NCBI GenBank assembly: GCA_048884785.1
Contig: JBHLQM010000004.1
Span: forward strand, 41,227-105,226
Source: Candidatus Thorarchaeota archaeon
GTDB taxonomy: Archaea; Asgardarchaeota; Thorarchaeia; Thorarchaeales; Thorarchaeaceae
Length of the DNA: 64,000 nt
Reading direction: 5' to 3'
Of the stretch, positions 1-19,683 are shown in pieces. The number at the start of each line of letters is the position of its first letter. The first letter of the stretch is position 1. The position numbers and the translations under genes are program-made. The notes beneath the pieces are model-generated. The model was not told the DNA's origin and did not search any database. It saw nothing but the letters and a program-made list of their open reading frames with translations.

Positions 1-161
1 AGCACAAGCTTGGTAGTTTGAAGTCTTCCTCGAGGACCATATGCCTCCCAACGAAGCTGTCTGAATGTAGGACAGACCATTGTGCAATTACCACACGAAG
101 CGCAGATGTATGGATCTGTTTCATGTCCTGTCCCTTCGAGATTTTTCAGACGACTCATCAT
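1..161 (-). CDS. GlcF/HdrD-like (Fe-S)-binding protein, 5' part only (runs off the window; not in ORF track)
   Basis: Manual translation from ATG at 161: MMSRLKNLEGTGHETDPYICASCGNCTMVCPTFRQLRWEAYGPRGRLQTTKLV; CxxCxxCxxxCP plus PRGR; AGAGG RBS upstream. Confidence 0.85.
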   Translation of the reverse strand, partial: MMSRLKNLEGTGHETDPYICASCGNCTMVCPTFRQLRWEAYGPRGRLQTTKLV

Positions 162-268
162 TGGTCCTCTTCGATTGTATCTAGCTATAAGCACCAAGTG
201 TTAGTGTGGAATCTTTTGTCGGTGGCAGCTGCTATCTACCACCGACAATCTATTTTTTTTGGTCGCAA

Positions 269-1597
269 TTAAGCATAGTCTTGGGTCATTTCCTGAGCAC
301 AGGCAATTCCAGACTTGGATGCAGCTTCCATAGAGGCATAATAATGGCCGCAATTGGCATATGCGCCAGCAACATAGAGCCCTTTAACTCCGGTGCGGTT
401 GGTCTTGAGCCTCTGAGACATTATTCCAGGTGGTTGTGAGAGCACGGACCTCCAAATCTTCCAGCTCTTCTTCCAAGTTATCTTTTCTTCAATTCCTGGA
501 ATCAGAGTCTTTAGCTCATTCAGGATTTCACGTGTTGCCTCACTATCATCCATCTTTAGTAGATCTTCATCAATTGACGTCACAGTAAGTAGTGATTCTC
601 CAATCGGTGCCAAGACCCCTGAAACACGTTTCGCTTCAGCCATTATGTGGATTTTCTTTCCAGGAATAAAGCCGCCCACATTGAAGTCAAGCACACGTGA
701 GGAAAGACCAAAGTATGCCACAATGGACGGGCGGTACGAAAACTTCCTGACTGCAGATGTGAAGTCACTCGGAAGCTTGTTCATTTCAACAAAATTCGGA
801 AGCAGATCAATGGGGGTCGTGACAACAACTGCATCGGCATCAACAGTATAGTCTTTACCTTCTTGTTCATACTCAAGCCCCACAACTTTCCCATCGTCTA
901 TGATAACCTGCTTTACTGCACAGTTAACTTTTGGTTCAATGGCGAAATTTCGAGCCTGAAGCATTAGTGTATATGGAACACTTCCCAATCCACCTCTTTC
1001 AGGATACATTGCTTGAAATCCATCTTCGTAGGCAAACCTCAGTTGCTCCGAGTATAGGTATTGACCAGCAGAAACTTGGTCGGGCTTCATGAAAGTGACA
1101 GTTCTAATAAGCGGGTCATAGAAATTCTCTTGTATGGACTCTGGGATATGATCCTCTGCATACTCTGAAAATGTCATCTTATCCAACTCCAAGAAATTCT
1201 CCTGAGTTCGTTTGAGGTTTTCCTGAACCAGCCGTCCCAGTGTGACACGTTCAGTTGGTCCTACAAGCCCAAATTTGGCAAGATCAACGACCGATTTCCG
1301 TATCATATGTTTCTCGCCAGCCTTTAGCCACACTGCTCCTTCTCCTACGACCGTCATGCGGACTCCGCTGCGCTCAAGTATCGGTATAAGAGACTTGAAA
1401 CCACCTACAAAGAAGTGAAGTCCTTGGTCAAAGACATACCCCGATTCTGTAAAAGATCTGGCACGACCCCCTACAGTCGGTTCCTTCTCAAGGATTGTAC
1501 ATCTGGCTTTCAGCCCTTTTAGCTCAAGTGCACAGCTAAATCCAGCGATGCCTGCTCCTACGATTACAACCCTTGGTGCCTTTCTTGTGTCGCTCAT
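269..1597 (-). CDS. FAD-dependent oxidoreductase, amine oxidase/phytoene desaturase (HpnE/PPO-like) superfamily
   Basis: VGAGIAG dinucleotide-binding motif, LEKEPTVGGRA, FDQGLH, C-terminal GLYVAGAY...SMEAASKSG. Confidence 0.85.
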   Translation of the reverse strand: MSDTRKAPRVVIVGAGIAGFSCALELKGLKARCTILEKEPTVGGRARSFTESGYVFDQGLHFFVGGFKSLIPILERSGVRMTVVGEGAVWLKAGEKHMIRKSVVDLAKFGLVGPTERVTLGRLVQENLKRTQENFLELDKMTFSEYAEDHIPESIQENFYDPLIRTVTFMKPDQVSAGQYLYSEQLRFAYEDGFQAMYPERGGLGSVPYTLMLQARNFAIEPKVNCAVKQVIIDDGKVVGLEYEQEGKDYTVDADAVVVTTPIDLLPNFVEMNKLPSDFTSAVRKFSYRPSIVAYFGLSSRVLDFNVGGFIPGKKIHIMAEAKRVSGVLAPIGESLLTVTSIDEDLLKMDDSEATREILNELKTLIPGIEEKITWKKSWKIWRSVLSQPPGIMSQRLKTNRTGVKGLYVAGAYANCGHYYASMEAASKSGIACAQEMTQDYA

Positions 1598-1629
1598 TGA
1601 TGTTTCCTCGGTTTATTTCATTACTATAT

Positions 1630-2754
1630 TCACTCGCCGACTAATGACGATTGCGCAAGGTCAAGAATCAATTCGTCGAGTTGAATTACTTCCAGATTCG
1701 TATCCCGTGCACAATAGCTGAGATTCTTGAAACAGGATATGCATGTGGTTATAATTCCATCCACTCCTATCTCAACAGCTTCAGCCACTCTGTTCTTTCC
1801 AATTGACTCTGCAAGATCTGGGTCTATTACACTCACAAAACCCCCGCAACAATTTGAGTTCTCTCGATTGTTTGGGAGTTCTGTAAATTCAAGCCCAGGA
1901 ATCGCGTTGATAATGGTTCTAGGTGGCTCATAAATACCCAACGCTCTACCAAGATGGCAAGAATCGTGGAATGTGTATGACCCCTCTTTTCCTTTAAAGG
2001 TAAGTACACCATTGTTTACCATATCTGCAAGAACTTCCACAGTATGATGGATTTTGATGTCAAAATTCTCTATCACATGAGGATAATGTTCAGCAAGAGT
2101 CCCAAAGCATCCACCACATCCAGTAATTATGTGATCAACTCCTGCTTTCTTGAACATTGAATAGTTCTTTCTGATGATGGATTCAAATCCCTCATCATCT
2201 CCCGCCCAGTAGTTCATGAGACCACAGCATACTTCGCTGGGAACGTATCCAACATTGACCTTGAGTTTCTGCATCATATCTACAACCATCTCAGGTTGAT
2301 CTGGATACCAGAATGAACCCATGCATCCTGAGAATATTGCCGTGTTGGATTCGGGAGGAAGCTCGAGGTCTTCAGCCCACACTGTCCTTTCATCTGCCTC
2401 AAACCCAACGAAGGGCGTTCCTTCTTTTTTCAGCCATTCGAGCACCTTCATTAGCCCCTCTGATAAGGACCCGCCTGTTCCTAGAAGATTAGCTTTTGCA
2501 TCATGCCAAATTGTCGTAACCGGAACTCCAGCAGGACAAATCGCTTCACACCGCCGGCAATCCGCGCAATAGAGTCTGTTTAAGAGTTCCTGAGGCGGCT
2601 TCCTCATCTTCTCAGCATATGCCCTAAGAGCTCTGATCTTCCCTCCAGGACTATCAAGTTCAGAACCAAGTTGCTTGTACATGGGACAGAAGTCCCGACA
2701 GTAATTACATGAGCCACAATGTCTTAGTACATCGGTCTTGAGGTCTACCTTCAT
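1630..2754 (-). CDS. (Fe-S)-binding oxidoreductase subunit, GlcF/HdrD-like (2x[4Fe-4S] plus two CCG domains)
   Basis: CGSCNYCRDFCP, CADCRRCEAICP, EVCCG, TGCGGC, HDSCHLGR, NCCGG, TTCISC. Confidence 0.9.
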   Translation of the reverse strand: MKVDLKTDVLRHCGSCNYCRDFCPMYKQLGSELDSPGGKIRALRAYAEKMRKPPQELLNRLYCADCRRCEAICPAGVPVTTIWHDAKANLLGTGGSLSEGLMKVLEWLKKEGTPFVGFEADERTVWAEDLELPPESNTAIFSGCMGSFWYPDQPEMVVDMMQKLKVNVGYVPSEVCCGLMNYWAGDDEGFESIIRKNYSMFKKAGVDHIITGCGGCFGTLAEHYPHVIENFDIKIHHTVEVLADMVNNGVLTFKGKEGSYTFHDSCHLGRALGIYEPPRTIINAIPGLEFTELPNNRENSNCCGGFVSVIDPDLAESIGKNRVAEAVEIGVDGIITTCISCFKNLSYCARDTNLEVIQLDELILDLAQSSLVGE

Positions 2755-2760
2755 TTATTT

Positions 2761-4260
2761 TCACCTCGCTACAAACTTGCCAAGCCGCCTGAAGGCAGCA
2801 GCAAGAACAAACAGAACGTTCATCCTTCCATATGATGTCATGCAGGTGGTTATTCTGTCTGGATTCATAATGTTTCTCGCGTCCAGAGACGCCTTTCTTT
2901 CCTTCATCACGGATTGTCTCTCTGGATATGCCCGTTTCATGTATATTGAATTCTGAAGACCTATGGTATAAGGTCCTCCTCCTCGTTTGATCGCCCTTTT
3001 CATCATTTTATGCAGGATTCCTTTGCTTGAAATGAATTCAAGATATTTGTCAGGATTCAGCATTGCCATAAGTTCAAGTCGCATCATGCTTGATGTACCA
3101 AGCATCCCAAACCATATAGCTGGTACCTTGTGTGTCTTCTTGGTCTTTTCATAGGCTTTCAGGAGGTCGTAGACATGTTCAACACTCACCCAGAGTTCCT
3201 GAAACATCAGAGTATGGCAATGCTCCTTTGGATTGAACTCACAATCAAAACGTAGGTCCCATTCCTTCGCTGAATACTCGTTTCCGAGGAATGTCCCTCC
3301 GCTTTCAGAGACGATTTGTTCGATCTCACTGAGAGGTGCCTTGGAGCTGTTCTCTACATATGAAACCGTTAGAACATATCTTCCCTTCTCGAGTGGATTG
3401 CTGAAGCTCTGGAAAGGTTGGTCTGCTATCTTGAGATACAGTGGTTTTTGAGTAGTTCCTGAAATACCCCTCATGGCGTTACATACATGCTCCAGGTAGG
3501 CAAAGCCATAACTCAGGGTGTTGATTCTTGGTGCCAATGGTCGTATCCTAAGCGTTGCTTCAACGATTACGCCCAAAATACCATACGAAGCATTGTAGAT
3601 ATCGATATCTTCCCCCTCTATTATCGAGATGGATCCGTCAGGCAAAACAACCTTTAGTTGAATGATATTGTCCTTGAGAGTGCCATATAACGGGGTTCCG
3701 ATTCCGGCCTTTCCTCCGCACCCGATCCAGCCGCCAACTACGGCTGACTTTGCACTCGAAGGATATATCCCTAGTTCAAAATTTTGCTTTGCCAATGCTT
3801 CGTCAAGAGCAGTGAATGTGACTCCTGGCTCAATAGTGACGGTTCCTTCCTTTGGATTTATTTCAAGAATCCTATTCATCCTCTTCAAATCCAAGGAGAT
3901 TCCTCCCCTTGATGGGCTTGAGGAACCCAGACAACTGGAGGCGCCTCCCCGCGGGATTACTGGAATCTTATGCGCACTGGCAATTTCTATGATTTCTCTC
4001 ACATGGTCTGTTGTTTCAACTCGTACTACATAATCTGCTAGATACCTCAACTTCCATCGGTAATGGAACTGTGGAAGAGCTGCTGGATCTCCACTATAGA
4101 CAATTCTCTCTAGCTCCATATCTGAGGCGTTTGTGAAACCCACAACACCAGCTAGTTTCTTGAGAATCAGCTCTTTCTCTGATACTTTGCTGGTCGGAAC
4201 ATCAATGAGTTGCTCTTGGGCCTGTGTTTGTTGAGTTGTACTTTCGTTTTCTTCAGCCAT
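2761..4260 (-). CDS. FAD-binding oxidoreductase, GlcD/D-lactate dehydrogenase (VAO/PCMH) family
   Basis: PVIPRGGASS, LDLKRMNRILEI, EPGV, PSSAKSAVVGG, SYGILGVIVEA, LDARNIMNP; start taken at MAEEN (4260). Confidence 0.85.
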   Translation of the reverse strand: MAEENESTTQQTQAQEQLIDVPTSKVSEKELILKKLAGVVGFTNASDMELERIVYSGDPAALPQFHYRWKLRYLADYVVRVETTDHVREIIEIASAHKIPVIPRGGASSCLGSSSPSRGGISLDLKRMNRILEINPKEGTVTIEPGVTFTALDEALAKQNFELGIYPSSAKSAVVGGWIGCGGKAGIGTPLYGTLKDNIIQLKVVLPDGSISIIEGEDIDIYNASYGILGVIVEATLRIRPLAPRINTLSYGFAYLEHVCNAMRGISGTTQKPLYLKIADQPFQSFSNPLEKGRYVLTVSYVENSSKAPLSEIEQIVSESGGTFLGNEYSAKEWDLRFDCEFNPKEHCHTLMFQELWVSVEHVYDLLKAYEKTKKTHKVPAIWFGMLGTSSMMRLELMAMLNPDKYLEFISSKGILHKMMKRAIKRGGGPYTIGLQNSIYMKRAYPERQSVMKERKASLDARNIMNPDRITTCMTSYGRMNVLFVLAAAFRRLGKFVAR

Positions 4261-4264
4261 TTTA

Positions 4265-5464
4265 TCACATCCCAAAGAAGATACCCAGGAACATACCCGT
4301 CATTCCCAAAATTGTCCACAAAACCACGGCAGGCAATCCAAGATTGCATGTTTTCCAGCCTGCTATATGAGTGAGAAAGGCCAACGTACCCAAAATCATA
4401 CTCACTATTCCAAGCCAAATATGCCAGGAATGAATAAACAATGTCAGATTGGCTACACTGATCAGATATGCAGGATTCATGGCGGTCCATGTTGAGGGAT
4501 CTTCTTGGAAAAGCCAAATGACGTTGATGCTTGTCAGGATATAGGCTATACTGAGCATTATTCCATGCATTCGTGTGAATCGTTCTTCATCGTAATATTC
4601 CAGAGCCGTACCAATATAGGCAATAACCAACGCAGGTCCTCCAAGAAGCCAGCCATAATGCATTTGTGGTAGCGGTTCAGGTGGGAAATTGCCAACAATG
4701 TATTCTTCTTCCCAAGAAACGGATTCAACTCCATCTGTGTCAATTGCTACAATTCTAAAAACGATGTAAGTATACAATGGAAATTCGGGAATTGTACCAA
4801 CATAGTATCCATTACTTAGAGTCATCGATTGATTTGTCCATGTCGATCTATTATCAGTGCTATACTGCAGTTTGACCTCACTGATGCCAACCTCGGAGGT
4901 TACATTTGTTCGGACTGCGACTGACTCGGTATCAAGAGGAATCAATGGTGTAGCATTGATTAACAGGATTGCAGGTCCTGCTCCTGGAGGTGGAAGAACA
5001 GTTACAGCAATTTGGATACTTATTCCATTAGGTATACCCTGCACCCCAAAAGCCTGAAGTGTATAGGACCCGGGAGAGGTTGGGGCTGTAATTGTATAAT
5101 TGACTTCTACTTGGTCAGTATCGGCATCCATATCTGCCGCATCTCCATCATTAACTGTACCCTCAGATCCGAGCGAACCATAGGTGAACTCGGCATTATC
5201 CCCAACTGCTGAGGGAAACTTCAGGGTGAGAGCATTCTCTCCTGTCACACCAACGACTTGAATAACAATGCTAAAGCTTGCCTCAGTTTCTACGCTTATT
5301 GCAGTGGTGGATGCAGAAACACTCATCCCTGATGAGCTATCATGACAAGGGGATGCAGTGCATGCATCGTTTCGACTAGGGTATGCCAAAGCTGAACCCG
5401 CAAGTAGAACCAAAACAAGAGTAATCGAAGTAATAAGAATTCCATATCGGACTTGCTTCTTCAC
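4265..5464 (-). CDS. Membrane protein: signal peptide, CX4CH motif, extracellular beta-rich domains, C-terminal 4-TM His-containing module
   Basis: GTG start after GGTGA RBS; SALA cleavage-like site; ACTASPCH; TM segments with MHG, HSWH, THI. Confidence 0.7.
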   Translation of the reverse strand: MKKQVRYGILITSITLVLVLLAGSALAYPSRNDACTASPCHDSSSGMSVSASTTAISVETEASFSIVIQVVGVTGENALTLKFPSAVGDNAEFTYGSLGSEGTVNDGDAADMDADTDQVEVNYTITAPTSPGSYTLQAFGVQGIPNGISIQIAVTVLPPPGAGPAILLINATPLIPLDTESVAVRTNVTSEVGISEVKLQYSTDNRSTWTNQSMTLSNGYYVGTIPEFPLYTYIVFRIVAIDTDGVESVSWEEEYIVGNFPPEPLPQMHYGWLLGGPALVIAYIGTALEYYDEERFTRMHGIMLSIAYILTSINVIWLFQEDPSTWTAMNPAYLISVANLTLFIHSWHIWLGIVSMILGTLAFLTHIAGWKTCNLGLPAVVLWTILGMTGMFLGIFFGM

Positions 5465-5710
5465 ATTTTTCACCCGGTTTATGTGGAGACTGTTTGCCAA
5501 CAAGTTTCGTTTCGTGCATATGGGCTATAAATCCTTACTGTTTTGTAGAAGCGTTCTAAGCAGGCAAAACCAATAAATTACGAATTCTTCTTTAAACTTA
5601 GATTCATGTTCCAAATAGTAACTAAGAGAATTAAGGCTACAAAGTTTCGAAAGACGAATCCAACAACAGAAAGGCTTCCAGAAACTCAGCATCTAAATCC
5701 GTCTTTTCAA

Positions 5711-8795: not shown

Positions 8796-9884
8796 CTATC
8801 CCTTGTATTCTTTTAGAGCCTTTTGAAGCATTTTTAGTCCATGAATGAGCTCTTCTTTCTCGCCGCCATATCCTAAACGGAAATGCTCATCCATCTCAAG
8901 ACCATAGCCTGGAACTACAAAGGTTCTATATTTCTGAACCAGAAGCTCGCAAAGCCTTCGTGTAGAGCCACCGGTCTTGAATCTTGGAGCCGCGACCACT
9001 CCTCCCTCAGGCTCAATCCATTCAAGCCAATCTTGGTTATTCATCCAGTCCTTCAAGATAGCATAGTTTTCAAACATTCTCTTCCTGATAGGTTTAATCA
9101 GCTTTTCTCGTTTCTTCAGCACCTCTAATGAGATCGCCTCACCGAGTGATGAGTTGCAGATGGTCATTTGTTCCCGAACAGCTCTGATCCCTTCAACTAT
9201 TGGCAAATCTGCAACTGCCCATCCTATTCGTATTCCAGGAAGACCATATACTTTAGACATACTGGTTAGACTTATTGCATTCTTGCTTAGAGTAGCTGCT
9301 AGCGGAGGCGGTTGACCGAAAGTGAGATCGCGGTAGGTCTCGTCCACCATGAGATAGAAATCATTTGATTCCGCTATTTCTATCGCCTGTAGAAGTGTTT
9401 CTTCGTCGATTTGGGATCCGGTAGGATTGTTTGGATGAGTAAGTGTAACTAGTCGAGTGTTAGGCTTCACCATCTTTTGTAGTTCCTTCAAATCCGGCTT
9501 GAAACGGTCTTCCCACTTAAGACGCAGAAGAGAGTGGTTTCTTCCTAGAGACCTTGGAACCTCATATAAAGAGGGATAAGTTGGGTGTTCAATAATCATG
9601 TGATCGTCAGGTCCTACAAGATGTGCAATGATGCAGAAGTTTGCTTCACTTGCGCCAGTGGTCACTGCAACATTTTCTCCTGAAAGACTCTGGTACTGAG
9701 CTGCAATCAAGCTTCTCAGCTTCGGGTGACCGAGATGATATCCATACCGAAGTTCCACTTCATTCAGGTCAATGTTTAGGTCCTTGACTGAGAGATACTT
9801 GACACCACTTTCACCAATGTCATAATCAACCTCGAATTGGTATGAATCGAACCAATCTTCAAGGGGCATTCTCTTGAAAACCAT
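8796..9884 (-). CDS. PLP-dependent aminotransferase class I/II
   Basis: HPNNPTG, VDETY, SMSKVYGLPGIRIGW. Confidence 0.92.
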   Translation of the reverse strand: MVFKRMPLEDWFDSYQFEVDYDIGESGVKYLSVKDLNIDLNEVELRYGYHLGHPKLRSLIAAQYQSLSGENVAVTTGASEANFCIIAHLVGPDDHMIIEHPTYPSLYEVPRSLGRNHSLLRLKWEDRFKPDLKELQKMVKPNTRLVTLTHPNNPTGSQIDEETLLQAIEIAESNDFYLMVDETYRDLTFGQPPPLAATLSKNAISLTSMSKVYGLPGIRIGWAVADLPIVEGIRAVREQMTICNSSLGEAISLEVLKKREKLIKPIRKRMFENYAILKDWMNNQDWLEWIEPEGGVVAAPRFKTGGSTRRLCELLVQKYRTFVVPGYGLEMDEHFRLGYGGEKEELIHGLKMLQKALKEYKG

Positions 9885-9936
9885 TATGAGGCCTCAAATT
9901 CTCCTCTACTGCGGACTAGGATATATAGATTGGCCC

Positions 9937-10425
9937 CTAGCCAGAAATTGAGTCAGCTGTTTTTAGGGCAGGTACAACAATTATGCGTCTTAACAGCTCT
10001 CGCAAATATTGACTGCTTCTAGCCCTTCGTGCAATCACAGGGCTAATCTCATAGTAAAGAAATACCATGAATCGACCTAGGTAGTTCGAAAGAAGGAAAT
10101 CGTCTCTGAATAACCTTAACCGATTGATCTCAGAATTAAGTGAAGTACCATAAACTGCAGTAGCGATAAAGCAGTCGGACTCATGTTCATTACAGAGTAT
10201 CTCTTCTCCAATTATCTTTGCCTTATGCTTGTCACACATGTAGACTGTTTTGTTGCATGTTATGCATTGACCAACAGGGTTCACTCCATCATGTAGAGGA
10301 ATGCCACACCTATCACAATACCTTTGCTTGAAACCATCATCTAGGCTTGCACCACACTTGTGACACTCTGCGGCATCACTAGGATTTCCCATCCCGCAGT
10401 ATCGACATTCGATAATCTCTGGCAT
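9937..10425 (-). CDS. Multi-zinc-ribbon protein with C-terminal CFI-box-CTERM domain
   Basis: CRYC/CHKC, CDRC/CITC, CDKH/CNEH; CFIATAVYG...LRLFRDDFL...YYEISP; ATG 10425 after AGGGGG. Confidence 0.8.
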   Translation of the reverse strand: MPEIIECRYCGMGNPSDAAECHKCGASLDDGFKQRYCDRCGIPLHDGVNPVGQCITCNKTVYMCDKHKAKIIGEEILCNEHESDCFIATAVYGTSLNSEINRLRLFRDDFLLSNYLGRFMVFLYYEISPVIARRARSSQYLRELLRRIIVVPALKTADSISG

Positions 10426-10475
10426 CTTTTTCCCCCTTTTATTTGGCAATCTTTTAGGCAAATACCAGCAATTTC

Positions 10476-10489
10476 TAATTAGCTAATTA
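10476..10489. promoter_or_regulatory. Perfect 14-bp palindrome TAATTAGCTAATTA in divergent intergenic region
   Basis: Seen directly; function inferred. Confidence 0.3.
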
Positions 10490-10619
10490 CTAGGCTAATC
10501 ATATGGTGTCCTGATTAAGGTTATTAGTTGAAAATTCTAATATTGCATATATGATTTGTCCCGGAATTCCGAAAGACAAATAGCACGCCACCACGTTTTT
10601 GGAATTCCTTGGGGGTGGG

Positions 10620-13600
10620 ATGATCATGACTGAGAGAGGTACAGAGCGAGCCGCGCGCGTTGCCGATGTCATGCAGACTTTAGCACGTATCTTAGTTCTT
10701 GTAATAATAATTCCAACTGCAATTCTGTTGGCTGTTTATTACCTGCTAATGGGACTGATACCCGACAATTTGATTCGGATGATGTTCTCCCTCACATTTG
10801 GCCTTGGCATTGCAGGTGGATTTGTTGCCCGAATGGAGCGTCCTCTTTTGGGAAGCTCGATTGTGACCCTAGCCGCCATTTTTGGTGCTGTTTCCCTAGC
10901 GATTTTTTGGAGTTCCCTCTTCAGCTCGATTGCTGTGCTTCATGTTTACTTAATCGTATTATTGGGAATACTAAGCTATCTCCATAGGGTTCATGTCATT
11001 CCGCCTTGGAGATGGATAAAGATTCGTTCGTTATTAGGAATCTCAATTAGTGCATCAGCACCTCTAGCGTCGATTATTCTGTTTCAAGGTATGGGACTGC
11101 AAGCTCCTCACATAATTTCAATCTCCATGCTCATTCTATGGGTATACACCGCAGGTGGCCAGTATTATCTTCGAGCCCTTCGGTTGGGTCCAGCTAGTGC
11201 TTTGTTCCTATCCCTTAGCGTATCATTTCTAGTATTGCAGTATCATCTTGATACGTGTCCAGCATCAGATATTCTATTGAGCATGTCAGTAGCTTTTCTT
11301 GGTTTTGGAGGAGGTTTGTTTGTAGTTTCACAGATTCTGCGATTCATTCAGAAATCAATATCCCTGCGTACCATATCTTCTCGTGAAAGGAAACATCGAG
11401 AAGGCATTCTCGATAATTATCCAGAGCAGGGAGACGAGCTACCTGATGCGTTTCCGGAATGGATTATCAGGTCAAAACACGCGCAGGCAATATCTGGAAT
11501 TGCGATGCTCGCCATTGCGGCAGGCATTCCGGTATACTTTCTATGGATGGCCCAATCTACAACTTGGGGAGTTGAACCCAGTTTCTTGAATTTGTTCGTG
11601 CCGCTCGCATTCTTGGCATTCCTTCTAACATTGATTCCATCACCTGTTCTTTTTCGATTAGGAGGAATCATGCAAAGGTCAACTGAGAGCAATATAGTAA
11701 AGGGAATCGGGCTTCTCATGGTATTGGATGCATCTCTCGCATCATACATTTGGACCCAATTTTGGTTTTTCTCTCTTATGCAGTCTATTACATTCTCTTT
11801 CATCCTCCTAATAACTGGGCTAACAGGTGTCTTTGAGCGAATTCGTGCACTCTGGAAAAGAGTGGGATATGAACTCCTGTACCAAATCAAAAAACTAAGA
11901 CACTGGATTTCAGGGCATCTTGTTCACACTGGAGTTGCGGTAGATTCTGTGATCACATTATTCGTTATGTCATTTCTTTATCCATTTCTATATCCGCTGC
12001 CAAATATGATTGCACCTTTGCTTCTACTTTCAGTAGTTCTATTCACTCTCATTGCTATGGCTGGAGTTGCAGCATTACGGATGCTACCTAAGAGAATTCA
12101 ATTCGCTTCCATAGGGTGGTCCATCCTACTGATTTCAGGTAGCTTGCTGACATATTGGTATCTGACTTACATTGTTAATATGGAACTAATGCCCTGCCTA
12201 GCGTACTCTTCTCTCTGGTTTATTGGCATGGCTGCTCTGCAAAAAGCAAACCTCTCCCGTCCGTTGGTTTCTATTCCGGTTGCTTTTGGAGTTCTTGGAA
12301 CACTCTATCATCTTGTTCCATTGGAGTACAATTATTCATCTATCACATATCCGTGGATCACCATTACCTCAGCAATTCTTCTTCTTGGCCTTGTTCTCCA
12401 TAAAGAGTATATCAGATTTCTCGGTGCAAGTTATAGATTACTTGCTGCCACAGGTAGAAGGATTTACAATGTAATCTCGAGGGCTGCCCATGTTATCATT
12501 AGTGTTCTAACTCGTTTCGCCACAGCTGCTAGGCGTGTGCTTGTACGTGTAGGAGGTTTCATCTATCGCGGTGCAGTATTCATTGGACTCCAGCTTCTGA
12601 GATTCGTCCTTGCCGTATATACAATAATCATTGTCATTGCAATTGCACATTTCGGATACAATGTTGTCTTTATTACAGGAACCTACGAGCCATGGTTTCT
12701 TTTCTCTTCTCTTTCACTAGTATTCTTCATTGCTCTATCACCTTCTCTCTATTTTAGAGAACGACACAAGACACCTTTGCTGAAGATTGTCATTATTGGA
12801 ATTGGGCTTACATTAGGCGGTTTTGTGTTTGGTCTAATTTCCTCTCTGCATTTCTGGTTGCGCATTCCTCTATCCATCGCGTCAGTTCTTGCCTTCTGGA
12901 CATTAACCCGAAAAGGGTTGCCTGAAAAATCCAGGGATGTTCTTCCTGTGGCAACATGGCTTGCAGTTCTTTCCGCCATTTCCCTTATGACCTGGCTGAC
13001 ATCCTTTGAAGCCTCATTGGTCGTTGCATCTATAACTACGGCTTTTATCACCGGAGTTGGGTTTTTGCCTATCAGGATTCAAACCAAACTTGCACGCGTT
13101 TCAAGCCTCCTTTACCTAGTTTTGTCTGTTCCTTCGGGAGCAGCCATGGCATTCATGTATACATCGGACTACGTTCTTTCACTGCTTGTTATCGCAGCTC
13201 TTCCAGCTGCAGTACTTTATCGGCAATACTCGAGCGGTCTAGAATTCCTGGCGGGCAAGCTTGCAGCTGGATTCAGGATTCTGGCATCTGCATTATTGCA
13301 TGCTTTGAGAATCATAGCACAAAGATTGTCTATTGCAGTGAGATACATATTGATCGTACTCGCGGCAAACATCATTCCTGCTACAGGAGTCTTCAGCATT
13401 GCCATTTCATTCGTTATAATGCAGGCCCTTCCGCAGTACGTCCAAGTCTGGTTTCTTGGAGTAACAACTAGGTTGCTTGTTTTCATTCTTCTGACAATGA
13501 TTCTCTGGTTGCCCGCTCTGCTCATTCGGCATCGCGACTTTCCTCTCTTGTTGTCGGGTGTATTGATAACAATAGCAGGCTCGATGGGTGCTCTTTCACT

Positions 13601-16600
13601 TAGCTTTCTTTTGCCATTGGGATTTCTAAGAGCCTTCCTGCTATCAATTGCGCTAACTTCATTCATCCTTGCACTATCTACGCCAGGAATCGAACGAATA
13701 GGGTCTCGAAAGGCACCTTCTTCAGTATCATTTTCAGCTCTTCTCTTGTTCTGTCTTGACCTACTCTCTCTAGACTTTCCTCTAACCCTTGGTATTCTTG
13801 CATTCAGCTTTGCAGTCCTTTCTGCACCATTCTTAAGTAGAATAAACCAGTTTCGGGTCGTCTATCCAATAGCCACTGCATCTTCAATTGCCCTAGTATT
13901 CTACTACTTTGTACTGCCTATTACTGATCTTTGGTTGACTATTAGTTTATGTGTTGCATTCGAAGCACTACTTCTTTCAATTCCGAATGAAATTCGATCA
14001 TGGCAGCTGTGGTGGTTGCTCTCCATCTCCATAGGTTATGCCATCTTCTCAATCATGAATACGGCTCCATATCTAGGAGCTTTTATCGCAATTCTCATTT
14101 CCACTGAACTGATTCACCTGACTCCTGATATAGAATACAGATTCACAGAATACGGTGAAGCATTGAGTGTCATGAGGGGTTTTCTATTAACTGCCTCAGC
14201 TGGGCTAATTCTCTCACCAATCTTATCGGTAGAGCTTGTTGCAGAAATCTGCTTGACAGTATTCCTAATTGTATTTTCAGCTTCAATCTGGAACGGAGCA
14301 TCAGCAAAATCAAGAACGATCTTCCTTGACGCCACGGGAGTATCTCTATCTCTATTATCATTCACATTCTTGTCGGCACTGCTGGAAGTACACTGGTTGC
14401 TCGTTCTCTATATTTCCATCCCGCCAATTTTTGCTGCACTTATTTATGCTTCAACATCAGGTGTCGCACAAAGTCATCATTGGACCGCACTAAAGGGCGT
14501 TGCAGTGCTTTCTATCTCATTGGCATGGTTCAGTGTATATCAAACGGTTGAATCTATTTTACTGGGACTTCCAACTGGTCTGTTTATCGCAATCGCTTTA
14601 TCCTACTGGAATCCTTGGGGCGGGAGTGTGCAAGGGAAGGGTCCAAGTCCTCTCGTGGGGGCTTTCATTTTGCTGATTGAATCAATCTGGGTATTTTATT
14701 CCGTAGTTATATTCTCACTATCTGGGAGTTTGATTCTTCTCGGTGCTTCTCTACTTCCAATTATCCTACTTGGATTTCCATTAAGGAACATGATTAGCTG
14801 GATGCAGTTTGAATTGATCTGGGATGCAATCTCTGCCTCAATCGCTGTAAGCACCGGATCAATCCTCTCAGGGTGGGATATTGCATCGCTGACATTTCCA
14901 CCAAATTTGGCTCTTCTCTTGGGCTGGAGTCTAAGTCTATACTCAATTTTTTCATTATCTGTGACTCATCTCAGCGAGAAAAGACAAAATCTTCAGACTG
15001 AAGAGAAAGTGAGTCATCTGACATGGACTCCTGCAATTCTTGGTTGGACTATTCTCGGATATGCGTACTCCGCAATCTTTGAGTTAATCCCATCATTTCA
15101 GCTCGGGGTATCCTGGCTGTCTTTCTGCATCTCATCGCTTATTTTTGTAACATTGCATCCCAATCCCTCTTCCAACCTTAAAATCGCAATTAACATGCTT
15201 GTTTCTACAGCACTTGCCTATTTCACATGGATTACTTTTAGCTGGGTTGACTCACTTTATTCTTTCATTTTTTCCGTTGGCGTATGGTATCTATTTGGCC
15301 TTCCAGTACTTGCAGCTCCTACCTACAGTCTATTTCGCAGAGCGTACGCTTTTATCACTACACATAGTGAAAACATCGCTCTAGGTCTGCCAGTTATAAT
15401 TGGCTTATGGTTTGGAGCTACATTTCTTCTAGATACAACATGTCCCGCAATTCTTGGTATTGGTGTAAGAAATTGTTTTCAAGCCTTGGCAATTGGAGCG
15501 CTTACTGTTGGTGGCCTTTATCTACTAGAAGGCATGACGCTTAATGGAAATCTCTCATCGAGAGTCAAGCAGCCATCAGTAACAATACTGGGACGAGGAG
15601 TGTTTGTGTTGCTGCTTGCCATTTACCTTCCTGAGGTTTTCGTTGCGTTTGATTTAGTTTTATACTACCTTGCAGGTTCTGCTGCAGTCTCGTTCTTTGT
15701 GATGTTTTTCCTAAATCTTATCCTTGGCTTCCGCGAGGCAATGAGGAGGTCTCTCATGATTGCTGGAGTTCTTCTGTTGCCGTCACTTATGGTGGGATTA
15801 ATGATATTCAATGCATTTCCTCTCCTGGAGTCAATACTACTAGCCTCGTTTGCAAGCTTTCTGGTTGAGAGCCCCCTCTTCGAAGTCCAGATTAGACGAT
15901 TCTTTGGAGCTTTGAGAAATGTAGCTACACTCGTTTCAAATGCACTAAGAAAGCTTGGTCATGCAATCAAGCAGTTTTTCCTTCGCTTTGGATATATCAA
16001 CTGGATTGCTTTCTCTGCTGGATTCACTATCTGTCTTTCCTGGTTGTCATACCCATTCTTCAGCGAATTTCTCAATATGAATCCCCTGAGTTTTGCCTAT
16101 GTGATTCCTAGCATAGGGATACCAATTCTTGTGCTTGGTTTTCTTTTGCTGAGCATATCCATAATCAGACGTACCGTTAGATCTTCATTTGGTTCTGCAT
16201 CATTCATGATTGCACTTTTTGGAGCAGCAACTACAGGGACATCATGGCTGTTTGACCATGGATTTATGCTGGAATCAACGGCAGTTGGCGTAATCCTCGT
16301 ATGCCTGTCCATTCTGATTTTCATGCGAGAGCGCCATATAATGGGTAGGTGGGTTTCTGCAATTTGGAGCCCAATCCCCCTCTCACTTGGCGTCCTTATA
16401 TTCAGTTTTATTTATCCGGTTGGTTCACCTATTGAATTGCTGCCGCTTGCATTATCTGTATCAGCAATGATTGGTCTATTTCTCTTATTGCTCTCTGCTT
16501 ACTCCAGATTGATGCCTAATCGAGTAAAGACTCCTCTCTGGGTCATGACAGGTGCATCGTCTGCGATTGCTACATACATGGTATCTGTGGAAGCCTCATT

Positions 16601-16922
16601 CCCTGTATTGGCAAGCATTTACCTAGCTGTATTTGTGATGTCTTGGGTGATGTTTCCCCTCACGCATAGGCAATATCGACATCTATTCAATGCACCTCTA
16701 TTCTTTGCGCTCACGGGCTTTGCATTTACTTTTGTTTTCGGTGAGTATTATCAAGGTCTTTTATTGGCATTGGCTTCGTTTCTTCTATTCATTGTGCTCT
16801 TTGTGAAGGAGCGAGAACCCCGAAATCCAAAACTTGCCTATCTACGTCTCTTTATGCTGATGGTACTTCTCGCTTTCATTGCAGTATTCGGGATCACAAT
16901 GCTCGGGGTATTAATGACGTAG
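10620..16922 (+). CDS. Giant polytopic membrane protein (~2100 aa), unknown function
   Basis: Uninterrupted 6.3-kb ORF made almost entirely of hydrophobic ~20-aa segments with basic amphipathic linkers; start ATG 10620 or 10626. Confidence 0.85.
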   Translation: MIMTERGTERAARVADVMQTLARILVLVIIIPTAILLAVYYLLMGLIPDNLIRMMFSLTFGLGIAGGFVARMERPLLGSSIVTLAAIFGAVSLAIFWSSLFSSIAVLHVYLIVLLGILSYLHRVHVIPPWRWIKIRSLLGISISASAPLASIILFQGMGLQAPHIISISMLILWVYTAGGQYYLRALRLGPASALFLSLSVSFLVLQYHLDTCPASDILLSMSVAFLGFGGGLFVVSQILRFIQKSISLRTISSRERKHREGILDNYPEQGDELPDAFPEWIIRSKHAQAISGIAMLAIAAGIPVYFLWMAQSTTWGVEPSFLNLFVPLAFLAFLLTLIPSPVLFRLGGIMQRSTESNIVKGIGLLMVLDASLASYIWTQFWFFSLMQSITFSFILLITGLTGVFERIRALWKRVGYELLYQIKKLRHWISGHLVHTGVAVDSVITLFVMSFLYPFLYPLPNMIAPLLLLSVVLFTLIAMAGVAALRMLPKRIQFASIGWSILLISGSLLTYWYLTYIVNMELMPCLAYSSLWFIGMAALQKANLSRPLVSIPVAFGVLGTLYHLVPLEYNYSSITYPWITITSAILLLGLVLHKEYIRFLGASYRLLAATGRRIYNVISRAAHVIISVLTRFATAARRVLVRVGGFIYRGAVFIGLQLLRFVLAVYTIIIVIAIAHFGYNVVFITGTYEPWFLFSSLSLVFFIALSPSLYFRERHKTPLLKIVIIGIGLTLGGFVFGLISSLHFWLRIPLSIASVLAFWTLTRKGLPEKSRDVLPVATWLAVLSAISLMTWLTSFEASLVVASITTAFITGVGFLPIRIQTKLARVSSLLYLVLSVPSGAAMAFMYTSDYVLSLLVIAALPAAVLYRQYSSGLEFLAGKLAAGFRILASALLHALRIIAQRLSIAVRYILIVLAANIIPATGVFSIAISFVIMQALPQYVQVWFLGVTTRLLVFILLTMILWLPALLIRHRDFPLLLSGVLITIAGSMGALSLSFLLPLGFLRAFLLSIALTSFILALSTPGIERIGSRKAPSSVSFSALLLFCLDLLSLDFPLTLGILAFSFAVLSAPFLSRINQFRVVYPIATASSIALVFYYFVLPITDLWLTISLCVAFEALLLSIPNEIRSWQLWWLLSISIGYAIFSIMNTAPYLGAFIAILISTELIHLTPDIEYRFTEYGEALSVMRGFLLTASAGLILSPILSVELVAEICLTVFLIVFSASIWNGASAKSRTIFLDATGVSLSLLSFTFLSALLEVHWLLVLYISIPPIFAALIYASTSGVAQSHHWTALKGVAVLSISLAWFSVYQTVESILLGLPTGLFIAIALSYWNPWGGSVQGKGPSPLVGAFILLIESIWVFYSVVIFSLSGSLILLGASLLPIILLGFPLRNMISWMQFELIWDAISASIAVSTGSILSGWDIASLTFPPNLALLLGWSLSLYSIFSLSVTHLSEKRQNLQTEEKVSHLTWTPAILGWTILGYAYSAIFELIPSFQLGVSWLSFCISSLIFVTLHPNPSSNLKIAINMLVSTALAYFTWITFSWVDSLYSFIFSVGVWYLFGLPVLAAPTYSLFRRAYAFITTHSENIALGLPVIIGLWFGATFLLDTTCPAILGIGVRNCFQALAIGALTVGGLYLLEGMTLNGNLSSRVKQPSVTILGRGVFVLLLAIYLPEVFVAFDLVLYYLAGSAAVSFFVMFFLNLILGFREAMRRSLMIAGVLLLPSLMVGLMIFNAFPLLESILLASFASFLVESPLFEVQIRRFFGALRNVATLVSNALRKLGHAIKQFFLRFGYINWIAFSAGFTICLSWLSYPFFSEFLNMNPLSFAYVIPSIGIPILVLGFLLLSISIIRRTVRSSFGSASFMIALFGAATTGTSWLFDHGFMLESTAVGVILVCLSILIFMRERHIMGRWVSAIWSPIPLSLGVLIFSFIYPVGSPIELLPLALSVSAMIGLFLLLLSAYSRLMPNRVKTPLWVMTGASSAIATYMVSVEASFPVLASIYLAVFVMSWVMFPLTHRQYRHLFNAPLFFALTGFAFTFVFGEYYQGLLLALASFLLFIVLFVKEREPRNPKLAYLRLFMLMVLLAFIAVFGITMLGVLMT

Positions 16923-16924
16923 GA

Positions 16925-17401
16925 CTAGAATTCTTTATCGGTACAGTACCCTCTCTGAACTCTTCCGGGTACTCCCTCGAAGGTACGTCCATTGCCTGAG
17001 TGGTGTTTAGATTTTCGCCGCAGGACCCCCATGAATGGTTTGCTCATATCTAAAACATGATCGGAAGTATCAATGGGATGTTCCAGTTCGAAAAATTGCC
17101 CGCTATATCCTCGAGCTAATTGCATTGATTCATTGTATACTGTAATTCTGCCGTTTCTCAGGAGATAGCCTTTTTCCACCTCAATCTCATCTATTTCATC
17201 ATTCCAAAGAATAAGGTCTATCTGTGCAGTTTCATCAGCAACTTTGGCTTGAGCTACTCTGTAGCTCTTCCCGGATTTCTTTGACCTTACTATTCTAGGC
17301 GTGTTTAGCTCAACTACCTTAAAACGGACTGAAATCCTGTGGCTAGTAATCTTTAGTTGGTTGATCTTTAGATTGTTTTCTACTATTTCTTCTTGAGGCA
17401 T
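16925..17401 (-). CDS. ssb: Single OB-fold ssDNA-binding protein (crenarchaeal SSB/RPA-like) with basic tail
   Basis: FKVVELNTPRIV...VADETAQIDLILWNDEI...NGRITVYNESMQL. Confidence 0.8.
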   Translation of the reverse strand: MPQEEIVENNLKINQLKITSHRISVRFKVVELNTPRIVRSKKSGKSYRVAQAKVADETAQIDLILWNDEIDEIEVEKGYLLRNGRITVYNESMQLARGYSGQFFELEHPIDTSDHVLDMSKPFMGVLRRKSKHHSGNGRTFEGVPGRVQRGYCTDKEF

Positions 17402-17595: not shown

Positions 17596-17997
17596 ATGAC
17601 AGTCCGCATATTTCTTGTTGATGATGAACCAGCGGTACCAAAACTTGTGGGCATCTACCTCAGAAGCTTTCTTGATGATTTTGAGGTCATGAGCTCAACC
17701 AGCGGATTGAAGGCGATTGAGAAGATTTCCCTAATCGTGAGGGGTGGCTACTTAGACAGAATTCCTGATATCACCGTCCTCGATTTTAGAATGCCAGGAA
17801 TGGGTGGACTTGAAACTGCGTCAAAACTAAAGGAGTTAGGTGTTCCTAATATCTATATTCTCACAGCGTACATCAGCCCTGAACTAATAGAAGCAGCAAC
17901 AACTATTGGAGTAAAGGGAATAATGAGAAAGAGTGAGGGTTTCAAAGAGATAGCTCGTCGAATTGCAGATGCGGCTAGAGCATTACAAACCTCATGA
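17596..17997 (+). CDS. Stand-alone response regulator receiver domain
   Basis: IFLVDDE, phosphoacceptor LDFRMPGMGG, LTAY, MRKS. Confidence 0.92.
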   Translation: MTVRIFLVDDEPAVPKLVGIYLRSFLDDFEVMSSTSGLKAIEKISLIVRGGYLDRIPDITVLDFRMPGMGGLETASKLKELGVPNIYILTAYISPELIEAATTIGVKGIMRKSEGFKEIARRIADAARALQTS

Positions 17998-18051: not shown

Positions 18052-19683
18052 GTGGAGGTATCTGATTTGGCACGCTCTCACTCTAAAATTGCATTTGCGT
18101 TATTTGCTCTATTCTTTGCTATGCTATTCATTTCTGGCTCTATGTCAACAGCGCAGGCACAGAGTTTCGGAGATGACTGGATTGAAGATGAGGATGAAAA
18201 ACTGCATATCCTCTTGACATTTGATGGTAGGTCGGCAACTACGGCAACTGAATCTAATCCTATAGTCATACCTCGAAATGAACCAATGGAACTACATCTA
18301 GAAATCAATGTGACCAATGATGTTCCACTTAATGTTAGTGGAGTGATAACTTTTTACTTCAATGATATTCCAGTGCTTCCTATTCAAATCCAGAATCCTG
18401 TTACGGAATCTGCATGGGTGCCTGTTGATCCAGTTTTAGGCATTATCCCAGTCACTTACCTATTCAATCTAAGTGATTATCTTGAAGTAGGCCCTGTTGA
18501 TTTGATGACAGGGATATACCAGTCCCGATTATCTTTCAGCTTTTATGAAATAGATCCTTCTGATTCCGTGCGTTCATCAGTGTTACATACTGTTTACACA
18601 GAGTTTTATTTTATACTCCCTGTTGAGAATCCTCTACAGGTGATTACCACCGTTGCAGGTTTGATAACAACTGGCTCCACTATTGCTGCTGTAGGTGGAG
18701 TTGGTTTGAATATACAAAAGATACTCGAGGCTATCCAGACAGCTCACAAAGCTAAAAGTATTCACAAGAAAACGGGAGAAATTAGATCTCTTCCAAATCT
18801 AATGGTTATAGGTGCTCTCCCATTGCTTTTCTCTATGCTATCGAGTATGGTTTCAGTTAAGAAAAAGAAGAGAAAAGATGCTGTTGAAGATCAACCTGAT
18901 AGCGTTAGTGAATATCGTCTCAGGCAAAGACTACGCGAAACAGCTCCTGAGGCCTGGCAAGTTGATAAATGTCCAAGATGCAAACGCGACTGGGACAAGA
19001 AAACAAACACCTGCAAGAAGTGCAAGATTGATGTTGATACCGGGCGGCAAGAATACGCTGAGTACCTTTCAACTAAGACTGAGAAAGCTATCAAAGTTGT
19101 AGGGAAGAAGAAATCAATTTCTATTCAAAAACTCTCAAAAGCAATCAAAACCAACGAGTATAACGCCGGAGTCATTGGAGCTGCAATGGTGGATACTGGC
19201 GTAACAGAGATACAAAAGATTGACACGCCATTCAGGAGTTTTATTATCAATATTGGTGGTCTAATCTTTCTAATCCTAACTTGGCAACAGCTACTTGGTG
19301 GTGCCGCAAGTAAGTTCCAGACCACACTGACATTTGTGGGTGCTGGGCTCTCTCTCGCAGTTATCATAGCTCTCTACGTAGCTAGAAAAACTCAGATCGA
19401 GAAGCTCAGAGTTGAAGTCGAGGATGGGGGTAAGCTAATGCCAACTGAGGCGGAGAGAGAGGCCAAAGATGAAATCCCTGAAGCTGAATCGCTCCCGTCA
19501 GAGGACGAGCCGTACGAAGAAGCAACCGATGAGGAAACAGCAGACGAAGAATCTGACGATTATGCGGATGAAGAAGTATCTGAATTACAGGAGGAGATTG
19601 ACGAAGAATGGTCTGAAGATTCCGATCTTGATGATGACTCAGATTCATTGCCTCCAGAGCGACTTGACAAAGAGAGGAAATAG
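18052..19683 (+). CDS. Membrane protein: signal peptide, extracellular domain, TMs, Zn ribbon, wHTH-like segment, acidic tail
   Basis: AQAQS cleavage-like site; CPRC-x10-CKKC; D/E-rich C-terminus. Confidence 0.75.
   Translation: MEVSDLARSHSKIAFALFALFFAMLFISGSMSTAQAQSFGDDWIEDEDEKLHILLTFDGRSATTATESNPIVIPRNEPMELHLEINVTNDVPLNVSGVITFYFNDIPVLPIQIQNPVTESAWVPVDPVLGIIPVTYLFNLSDYLEVGPVDLMTGIYQSRLSFSFYEIDPSDSVRSSVLHTVYTEFYFILPVENPLQVITTVAGLITTGSTIAAVGGVGLNIQKILEAIQTAHKAKSIHKKTGEIRSLPNLMVIGALPLLFSMLSSMVSVKKKKRKDAVEDQPDSVSEYRLRQRLRETAPEAWQVDKCPRCKRDWDKKTNTCKKCKIDVDTGRQEYAEYLSTKTEKAIKVVGKKKSISIQKLSKAIKTNEYNAGVIGAAMVDTGVTEIQKIDTPFRSFIINIGGLIFLILTWQQLLGGAASKFQTTLTFVGAGLSLAVIIALYVARKTQIEKLRVEVEDGGKLMPTEAEREAKDEIPEAESLPSEDEPYEEATDEETADEESDDYADEEVSELQEEIDEEWSEDSDLDDDSDSLPPERLDKERK

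Follow-up and report, generated by a model that had tools for sequence, protein, structure and literature searches.

A giant membrane protein of Thorarchaeota with about 67 transmembrane helices and basic 11-residue amphipathic linkers

What does an archaeon do with a protein of some 2100 residues that is almost pure membrane? This question is raised by one gene in a stretch of 64,000 nucleotides from Candidatus Thorarchaeota archaeon (assembly GCA_048884785.1, contig JBHLQM010000004.1, positions 41,227 to 105,226 of the forward strand), called the window in the following and numbered from its first letter. The protein it encodes is a single integral membrane chain with about 67 transmembrane (TM) helices and is almost wholly buried. 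Among known organisms, Asgard archaea are the nearest relatives of eukaryotes, and the organisation and deformation of their membranes is a central open question. The giant protein is conserved and single-copy and has a readable design of repeated TM modules and quantised basic 11/3 helices, i.e. 11-residue (hendecad) repeats with a period of 3.67 residues. It may represent a new kind of membrane-organising machine.

Gene, topology and family

The open reading frame (ORF) extends from 10599 to 16922 on the plus strand (2107 codons), with a TTG at 10599 as the upstream-most start. The ATG at 10626 is the likely start, since it coincides with the conserved N-terminus of the family, M..KG.ERA.R.AD..Q. 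It is also the start of the gene as called in public data and yields the protein P0002 of 2098 amino acids (aa).

10626..16922, plus strand: giant membrane protein gene (P0002), 2098 aa, about 67 TM helices, supported by homologues

The gene is real, because full-length homologues of 2033-2447 aa exist, which are 27-47% identical to P0002 over 99% of its length. A preliminary description, made from the letters of the window alone, had reported a polytopic frame of about 2100 aa at this place, almost without soluble domain. The open frame and its homologues bear this out, no soluble domain is present, and four peptide stretches singled out at that time were recovered exactly where they had been placed. 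Leu makes up 17% of the residues, Ser and Ile 10% each, Phe 7.5%, Arg 4.3%, Lys 1.4% and Asp 1.1%.

AlphaFold2, applied to the two halves of the protein with alignments of 11 sequences, returned all-helical models with a mean predicted local distance difference test (pLDDT) of 56.7 and 60.7 and a predicted template modelling score (pTM) of 0.34 and 0.36. Because of this low confidence only the helix boundaries of the models were used and merged with the family-averaged hydropathy. This resulted in 67 TM-like helices covering 71% of the residues; the 50-60 hydrophobic segments counted before had correctly indicated a polytopic protein, with a count that was too low. In the 67-TM model, 97 Lys and Arg residues lie on 'in' loops compared to 2 on 'out' loops. 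The 'in' loops have a median length of 7 residues and a maximum of 66, the 'out' loops a median of 4 and a maximum of 14, and the external loops (2-14 residues) are essentially free of Lys and Arg. Averaged over the family, the Lys and Arg content alternates strictly between rich and nearly empty loops along the whole chain. This alternation is a check independent of the model and validates it. According to the positive-inside rule the Lys/Arg-rich loops are inside, indicating a cytoplasmic N-terminus and a C-terminus outside. Besides the linkers treated below, the sole longer non-TM loop is a charged cytoplasmic one of 44 residues (aa 239-282) between TM8 and TM9.

The giant proteins form an orphan family resembling no known protein. 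P0002 matched no Pfam or NCBIfam family at E ≤ 1, and across 18 family members no Pfam family recurred even at E = 1, transporter families included. Profiles of both halves found no membrane protein among all PDB sequences at E ≤ 10. Foldseek searches of the AlphaFold models against the PDB gave generic alpha-solenoids only (E ≥ 0.008, TM-scores ≤ 0.23), which with models of such low confidence is background. A HMMER profile of the C-terminal half yielded 38 matches among 1.84 billion protein representatives, all of them family members or their fragments, and a search for shorter or stand-alone relatives of the 8-TM module described below found fragments of the same giant family only. A literature search on Thorarchaeota giant membrane proteins and archaeal 11-mer repeats retrieved nothing relevant. 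Thus no full-length match to a characterised family emerged from Pfam, NCBIfam, PADLOC or the PDB, in line with the earlier suspicion of an undescribed system. PADLOC gave no match for P0002, and membership of the giant protein in an anti-phage defence system was discarded on this ground.

The preliminary description had also proposed to follow the gene across Asgard genomes. It is present in 25 of the 400 genomes surveyed, all 25 from one GTDB family. Within this family 24 of 85 genomes carry it (the genome of the window not counted), spanning 9 of 16 genera. Each of these genomes has a single giant gene, and where a few of them match twice, the matches are pieces of that gene divided between contigs or frames. 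The source organisms of the homologues are named Thorarchaeota in the NCBI records, as fits the Asgard host deduced earlier from the letters.

Basic 11-residue linkers and repeated TM units

Four linkers, all of them on the Lys/Arg-rich and hence cytoplasmic side, separate blocks of TM helices:

11832..11918, plus strand: L0, basic Trp-rich amphipathic helix of 29 residues (aa 403-431) in a cytoplasmic loop
12414..12611, plus strand: L1, six 11-residue repeats (aa 597-662) on the cytoplasmic side, running into TM19
13233..13364, plus strand: L2, basic amphipathic stretch of 44 residues (aa 870-913) with weak periodicity
15897..15995, plus strand: L3, three 11-residue repeats (aa 1758-1790), ending in an invariant RFGY motif

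The six most amphipathic 22-residue windows of P0002 fall into L1, L3, L0, the 236-285 loop, L1 again and L2. In all four linkers the HeliQuest-type lipid-binding discriminant D amounts to 1.39-1.85 and thus exceeds 1.34.

The strongest evidence for an 11-mer architecture of L1 is the quantisation of its length. In 14 of 17 orthologues the length of L1 between the invariant anchors Y595 and a K/R-F-I-L motif is 13, 24, 35, 46, 57, 68 or 79 residues, corresponding to 2 + n x 11 with n = 1-7. L3 measures 36 or 47 residues between its anchors, the extra 11 residues being located at different places in different lineages; P0004, P0005 and P0020 possess four L3 repeats, the other orthologues three. 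A variation in repeat number, as looked for on the advice of the preliminary description, is thus found in both linkers (1 to 7 units in L1, 3 or 4 in L3). In a tree computed after removal of the linker columns, the number of repeats changed several times independently: one clade has 6 and 5, another has 7, and 3, 1, 4 and 2 occur elsewhere. The close relatives P0009 (4 repeats) and P0011 (3 repeats) differ by exactly one L1 repeat. Such steps of whole 11-mers leave a linker in the same helical phase with respect to the TM helices on either side. Tandem Repeats Finder detected no 33-nucleotide DNA repeat in the linkers, indicating that the repeats are old and diverged.

The periodicity of the linkers points in the same direction. 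L1 exhibits a Fourier peak at 98 degrees, i.e. a period of 3.67 residues (z = 4.6, range 4.6-5.0), which none of 2000 shuffles reached. The 11-residue repeat with its hydrophobic period of about 3.67 exists in the orthologues, too: the peak lies at 97-100 degrees in the 14 with an L1 of whole 11-mers, and at 98 degrees in each L1 of at least 44 residues. For L3 the peak is at 99 degrees in P0002 (z = 2.6) and at 96-101 degrees in all orthologues but one. L2 shows only weak periodicity (z = 1.2 in P0002, range 1.1-2.5) and has a length of 44 residues in the closest relatives only; most of the family lacks it. L0 comprises 29 residues in 18 of 18 sequences, with F403, R407 and W427 invariant. 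The 11-mer reading put forward earlier, together with the period of 3.67 residues to be checked for it, therefore stands for L1 and L3. L2 is a weak and lineage-specific case, and the shorter stretch noticed near 11840-11910, our L0, is a fixed helix instead.

Units of 11 residues stacked in register give the consensus R-Φ-G-x-x-Φ-x-x-[G/A]-Φ-Φ (Φ, hydrophobic residue), which is almost perfect in P0022. On an 11/3 wheel calculated from this consensus, positions 2, 6 and 10 form a straight hydrophobic stripe beside the small residues, and position 1 (Arg) together with positions 4, 5 and 8 forms a narrow basic face. The hydrophobic face spans about 200 degrees, and the mean hydrophobicity is high. 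L1 of P0002 has a net charge of +11 without any acidic residue; across the orthologues the arrays carry +5 to +15, with 0-2 acidic residues. Taken together, these data support the view that L1 and L3 are true 11/3 amphipathic repeats, basic and located on the cytoplasmic side.

Two of the linkers lie in the middle of a duplicated block:

12090..12899, plus strand: 8-TM module copy 1 (aa 489-758), consisting of 4 TM, L1, 4 TM
12930..13670, plus strand: 8-TM module copy 2 (aa 769-1015), consisting of 4 TM, L2, 4 TM

The two copies align in hhalign over 243 columns with a probability of 98.8% (E = 8e-17). When all 4-TM units were compared with each other (465 comparisons), 14 pairs exceeded 50% probability and 3 pairs 90%, compared to 1 pair and none, respectively, in the same number of comparisons with reversed templates. 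A weak relationship (68-82% probability) also connects the units that bear the linkers L0, L1, L2 and L3. A search for repeats among the TM blocks, suggested from the start, was thus rewarded with an 8-TM duplication and related 4-TM units. As the matches lie far above the reversed control, the whole protein descends from amplified 4-TM and 8-TM units. Changes in module copy number are ongoing among the orthologues. P0007 (2447 aa) contains two extra copies of its module of L0 plus 6 TM (residues 587-1034; 55% and 40% identity, E = 1e-61 and 3e-44), and in P0021, P0025 and P0031 a further module, about 236 aa long, is present at L2.

Lineage-specific tandem duplications of entire TM modules around L2 were seen in P0021, P0025, P0026, P0031 and P0033. 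With module duplications, some orthologues reach a predicted total of roughly 75-80 helices.

Possible roles in the membrane

It is possible, and in our estimate a little short of an even chance, that the giant protein is a membrane-embedded scaffold with in-plane lipid-binding helices, which orders, stiffens or bends the membrane. We favour this reading because the linkers fit lipid-embedded in-plane helices that tether TM bundles: they follow a hendecad pattern, their polar face is purely basic, they are cytoplasmic, and their length changes keep the phase. On the cytoplasmic side strongly basic amphipathic helices join the TM blocks. The hendecad helices would be embedded parallel to the membrane plane in the cytoplasmic leaflet; their hydrophobic stripe would be immersed in the lipid, and their Arg side would rest on anionic head groups. 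In-plane helices would thus link the TM bundles, fix the distance between them and place a load on the inner leaflet only, and the membrane would be stiffened, ordered or bent by a large embedded scaffold. The latter probably acts together with the zinc-ribbon/CFI-box protein P0051, which is encoded divergently next to it (see below). A bolder version, which we consider rather doubtful, is that the family holds the largest TM helix count known in one polypeptide (about 67, up to roughly 75-80), its 4- and 8-TM bundles being tethered by hendecad linkers as tunable rulers or springs. Some Asgard archaea would thereby possess intrinsic membrane shaping or mechanosensing unrelated to ESCRT, BAR, reticulon or Piezo. 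The giant protein would be a polytopic protein of record size, and how it is inserted and folded would be a hard problem for membrane biology. As the hendecad linkers are no more than short peptides, their lipid binding and curvature effects are accessible to direct tests.

Several known proteins share parts of this design. Alpha-synuclein, exchangeable apolipoproteins, perilipins and group-3 late embryogenesis abundant (LEA) proteins likewise have an 11-residue repeat with a period of 3.67, a conserved small residue per unit, a straight hydrophobic stripe and a variable copy number. However, these proteins are soluble, bind reversibly and mix Lys with Glu or Asp on their polar faces, whereas the arrays of the giant family are inserted between TM helices, are nearly pure in Arg/Lys, possess a much wider hydrophobic face and show no sequence homology. 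The preliminary description had drawn the comparison with synucleins, perilipins and apolipoproteins. It holds for the 11/3 repeat and its copy-number variation, and the membrane shaping, scaffolding or mechanosensing attached to it follows by analogy only. The membrane-shaping proteins of the reticulon, REEP and Yop1 type are similar in principle, combining TM hairpins that have minimal outer loops and an amphipathic in-plane helix of the cytoplasmic leaflet, but they have 4 TM helices and one short helix, and no homology was detected.

A number of observations weigh against the scaffold. Three of the 17 orthologues have an L1 of 10, 17 or 28 residues between the anchors, i.e. not of whole 11-mers, and insertions and deletions of whole repeats could reflect only unequal crossover between repeats and not selection on phase. 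In the AlphaFold models the linkers have a pLDDT below 50. The giant gene is dispensable, since many near-complete genomes of the same GTDB family do not contain it. As to the presumed partner, the one-contig genome G320 of the same GTDB family carries a P0051 homologue directly beside an Ssb-like OB gene and no giant gene. Small zinc-ribbon/CFI-box proteins also occur in other Asgard families without a giant gene nearby, e.g. G044:C311, G134:C41, G217:C6 and G250:C23. As the neighbour survives without the giant gene in these cases, the pairing may be synteny only; the giant gene may depend on its neighbour and not the neighbour on the giant gene. Finally, a few residues conserved inside the membrane suggest, together with an outward motif, a specific site that a passive scaffold would not need. 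They are concentrated in two regions:

13929..14711, plus strand: central TM34-TM43 region with the conserved membrane-embedded E1113, E1161, R1184 and E1352
15978..16919, plus strand: most conserved, C-terminal part (aa 1785-2098) with the longest outward loop and the RR pair 1848-1849

Only about six ionisable residues are conserved within the 67 TM helices, namely H106 (TM4), R746, E1113, E1161, R1184 and E1352. H106 is invariant. E1113, E1161, R1184 and E1352 are each retained by 16 or more of the 18 sequences, E1352 being located mid-membrane in the motif LExIWIWH. The longest outward loop, which bears the motif PFFSEL-NM-P, belongs to the C-terminal 300 residues, the best conserved ones of the protein. 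H106, the four charges of the central region and this motif constitute the candidate site. The charges in TM34-43 and the C-terminal features may keep a channel or transport role in play.

Among the alternatives to a scaffold, a Piezo-like mechanosensitive or otherwise gated channel survives best, though we regard it as unlikely. The 4-TM units would be blades, tension would be conveyed via the in-plane helices, and the C-terminal 300 residues would form an oligomeric pore. Like the eukaryotic Piezo, the giant protein is a very large polytopic chain of tandem 4-TM units, with amphipathic helices on the cytoplasmic face between TM blocks and a C-terminal region that is most conserved and, here, contains a conserved outward loop. 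Its TM density, however, lies far above that of Piezo, which has 38 TM helices in about 2500 aa. It also has quantised 11-mer linkers and no cap, beam or large soluble domain, and its distribution is archaeal, limited to a single family of Thorarchaeota. Neither Pfam nor the profile searches revealed a sequence match to Piezo or to any PDB chain, the Foldseek results were background only, and the models are too poor to judge blade or pore geometry.

An ion- or lipid-translocating machine, in which the Glu and Arg residues of TM34-43 serve as a charge path and the rest is structural elaboration, appears improbable. The conserved E1113, E1161 and R1184, the mid-membrane E1352 and the invariant H106 would be expected in such a protein. 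Yet half a dozen conserved ionisable residues are few for 67 helices, the 18 members matched no transporter family, and no energy-coupling domain or partner is at hand, the neighbours being a zinc-ribbon and an OB-fold protein.

We see a similarly small chance that the hendecad linkers mediate protein-protein or nucleic-acid contacts, either as straight or right-handed coiled coils between protomers or as docking sites for the zinc-ribbon/CFI-box protein or the cytoskeleton. Repeats of 11 residues also form right-handed coiled coils, tetrabrachion being an example. With Gly or Ala at positions 3 and 9 of the repeat, the helices could pack closely, and the zinc-ribbon and OB-fold neighbours are conserved. 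Against this, the net charge of the arrays, nearly without acidic residues, makes self-association repulsive. The width of the hydrophobic face and the high mean hydrophobicity resemble those of in-plane membrane helices, and an interface with a fixed partner would hardly go together with a copy number that varies between 1 and 7.

That the Arg-rich stretches are themselves ordinary or voltage-sensor-like TM helices, as the preliminary description had considered against its own proposal, can practically be dismissed: they are fairly hydrophobic and AlphaFold, with low confidence, runs the final two repeats of L1 and TM19 together into a single helix, but a span of 20 residues would bury three to four uncompensated Arg without conserved acidic partners, the Arg spacing is 4, 7 or 11 and not each third residue, and an L1 of 11 to 77 residues keeps the same flanking in/out charge pattern, which excludes a fixed number of crossings. 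With 5-15 uncompensated basic residues and a constant flanking topology at all these lengths L1 cannot cross the membrane, and L3 cannot be a TM segment either.

Neighbouring genes

Upstream of the giant gene the following features are found:

9937..10425, minus strand: zinc-ribbon/CFI-box neighbour (P0051), 162 aa, matching NF041770, divergent from the giant gene
10426..10625, no strand: AT-rich intergenic region of 200 base pairs between the two divergent genes

The intergenic region presumably holds the promoters of both genes. A sigma-70 promoter and terminator scan was uninformative, since its consensus is not applicable to archaea.

The N-terminus of P0051 is a module of three conserved zinc sites (C7/C10/C21/C24, C37/C40/C54/C57 and C64/H67/C78/H81) without a signal peptide, which distinguishes P0051 from CFI-box-CTERM proteins. 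It shares with them the C-terminal 66 residues, which start with CFIATA and match NF041770 with 76.3 bits (cut-off 40, E = 1.2e-21); the match covers residues 97-162 in the numbering of the 174-residue ORF. C85-F86-I87 is invariant in the alignment. P0051 is the only CFI-box protein in this genome and is more conserved (50-61% identity) than the giant protein. In 39 of the 400 Asgard genomes the CFI-box-CTERM domain terminates open frames that are 150-600 aa long and differ in their N-terminal parts; our literature search found no publication on its function. Examples of the small zinc-ribbon/CFI-box ORFs in other families are L006 9829-10308 (minus strand) and L008 9693-10196 (plus strand).

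In matches to P0051 homologues (L009-L013; G350, G377, G322, G337 and G325) in-frame TGA codons were flagged, all of which lie upstream of the Met start. The idea that they encode selenocysteine was rejected for this reason. For the same reason the ORF of 174 codons starting with TTG in the window is over-extended, and the true start gives 162 aa.

P0051 is adjacent and divergent to the giant gene in three fetched homologous loci, including L003, which shares no other synteny with the window. By coordinates, the same arrangement occurs in all 16 genomes with both genes on one contig. A complex prediction for residues 1-490 of the giant protein with P0051 scored 0.00; it was run without controls and speaks neither for nor against binding.

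In the G320 locus (L004, G320:C1:1469000-1488900), the ORFs 9692-10201 and 10282-10815, both on the plus strand, are the zinc-ribbon/CFI-box and OB genes. This locus is otherwise syntenic, with a pyr-redox gene and a gene for a receptor-like protein of 529 aa.

Downstream of the giant gene follow genes for an Ssb-like OB-fold protein (16925-17401, minus strand), an orphan response-regulator receiver (17596-17997, plus strand) and an unannotated 543-aa protein with a weak match to a zinc-ribbon model (18052-19683, plus strand). None of them recurs in L003. The OB gene is found again in L001, L002 and G320, and the pair of receiver and 543-aa-type protein in L001 and L002. L001 also has FAD-oxidase/CCG genes upstream of its giant gene, as does the window (1-5503), which we take as genus-level synteny rather than linkage.

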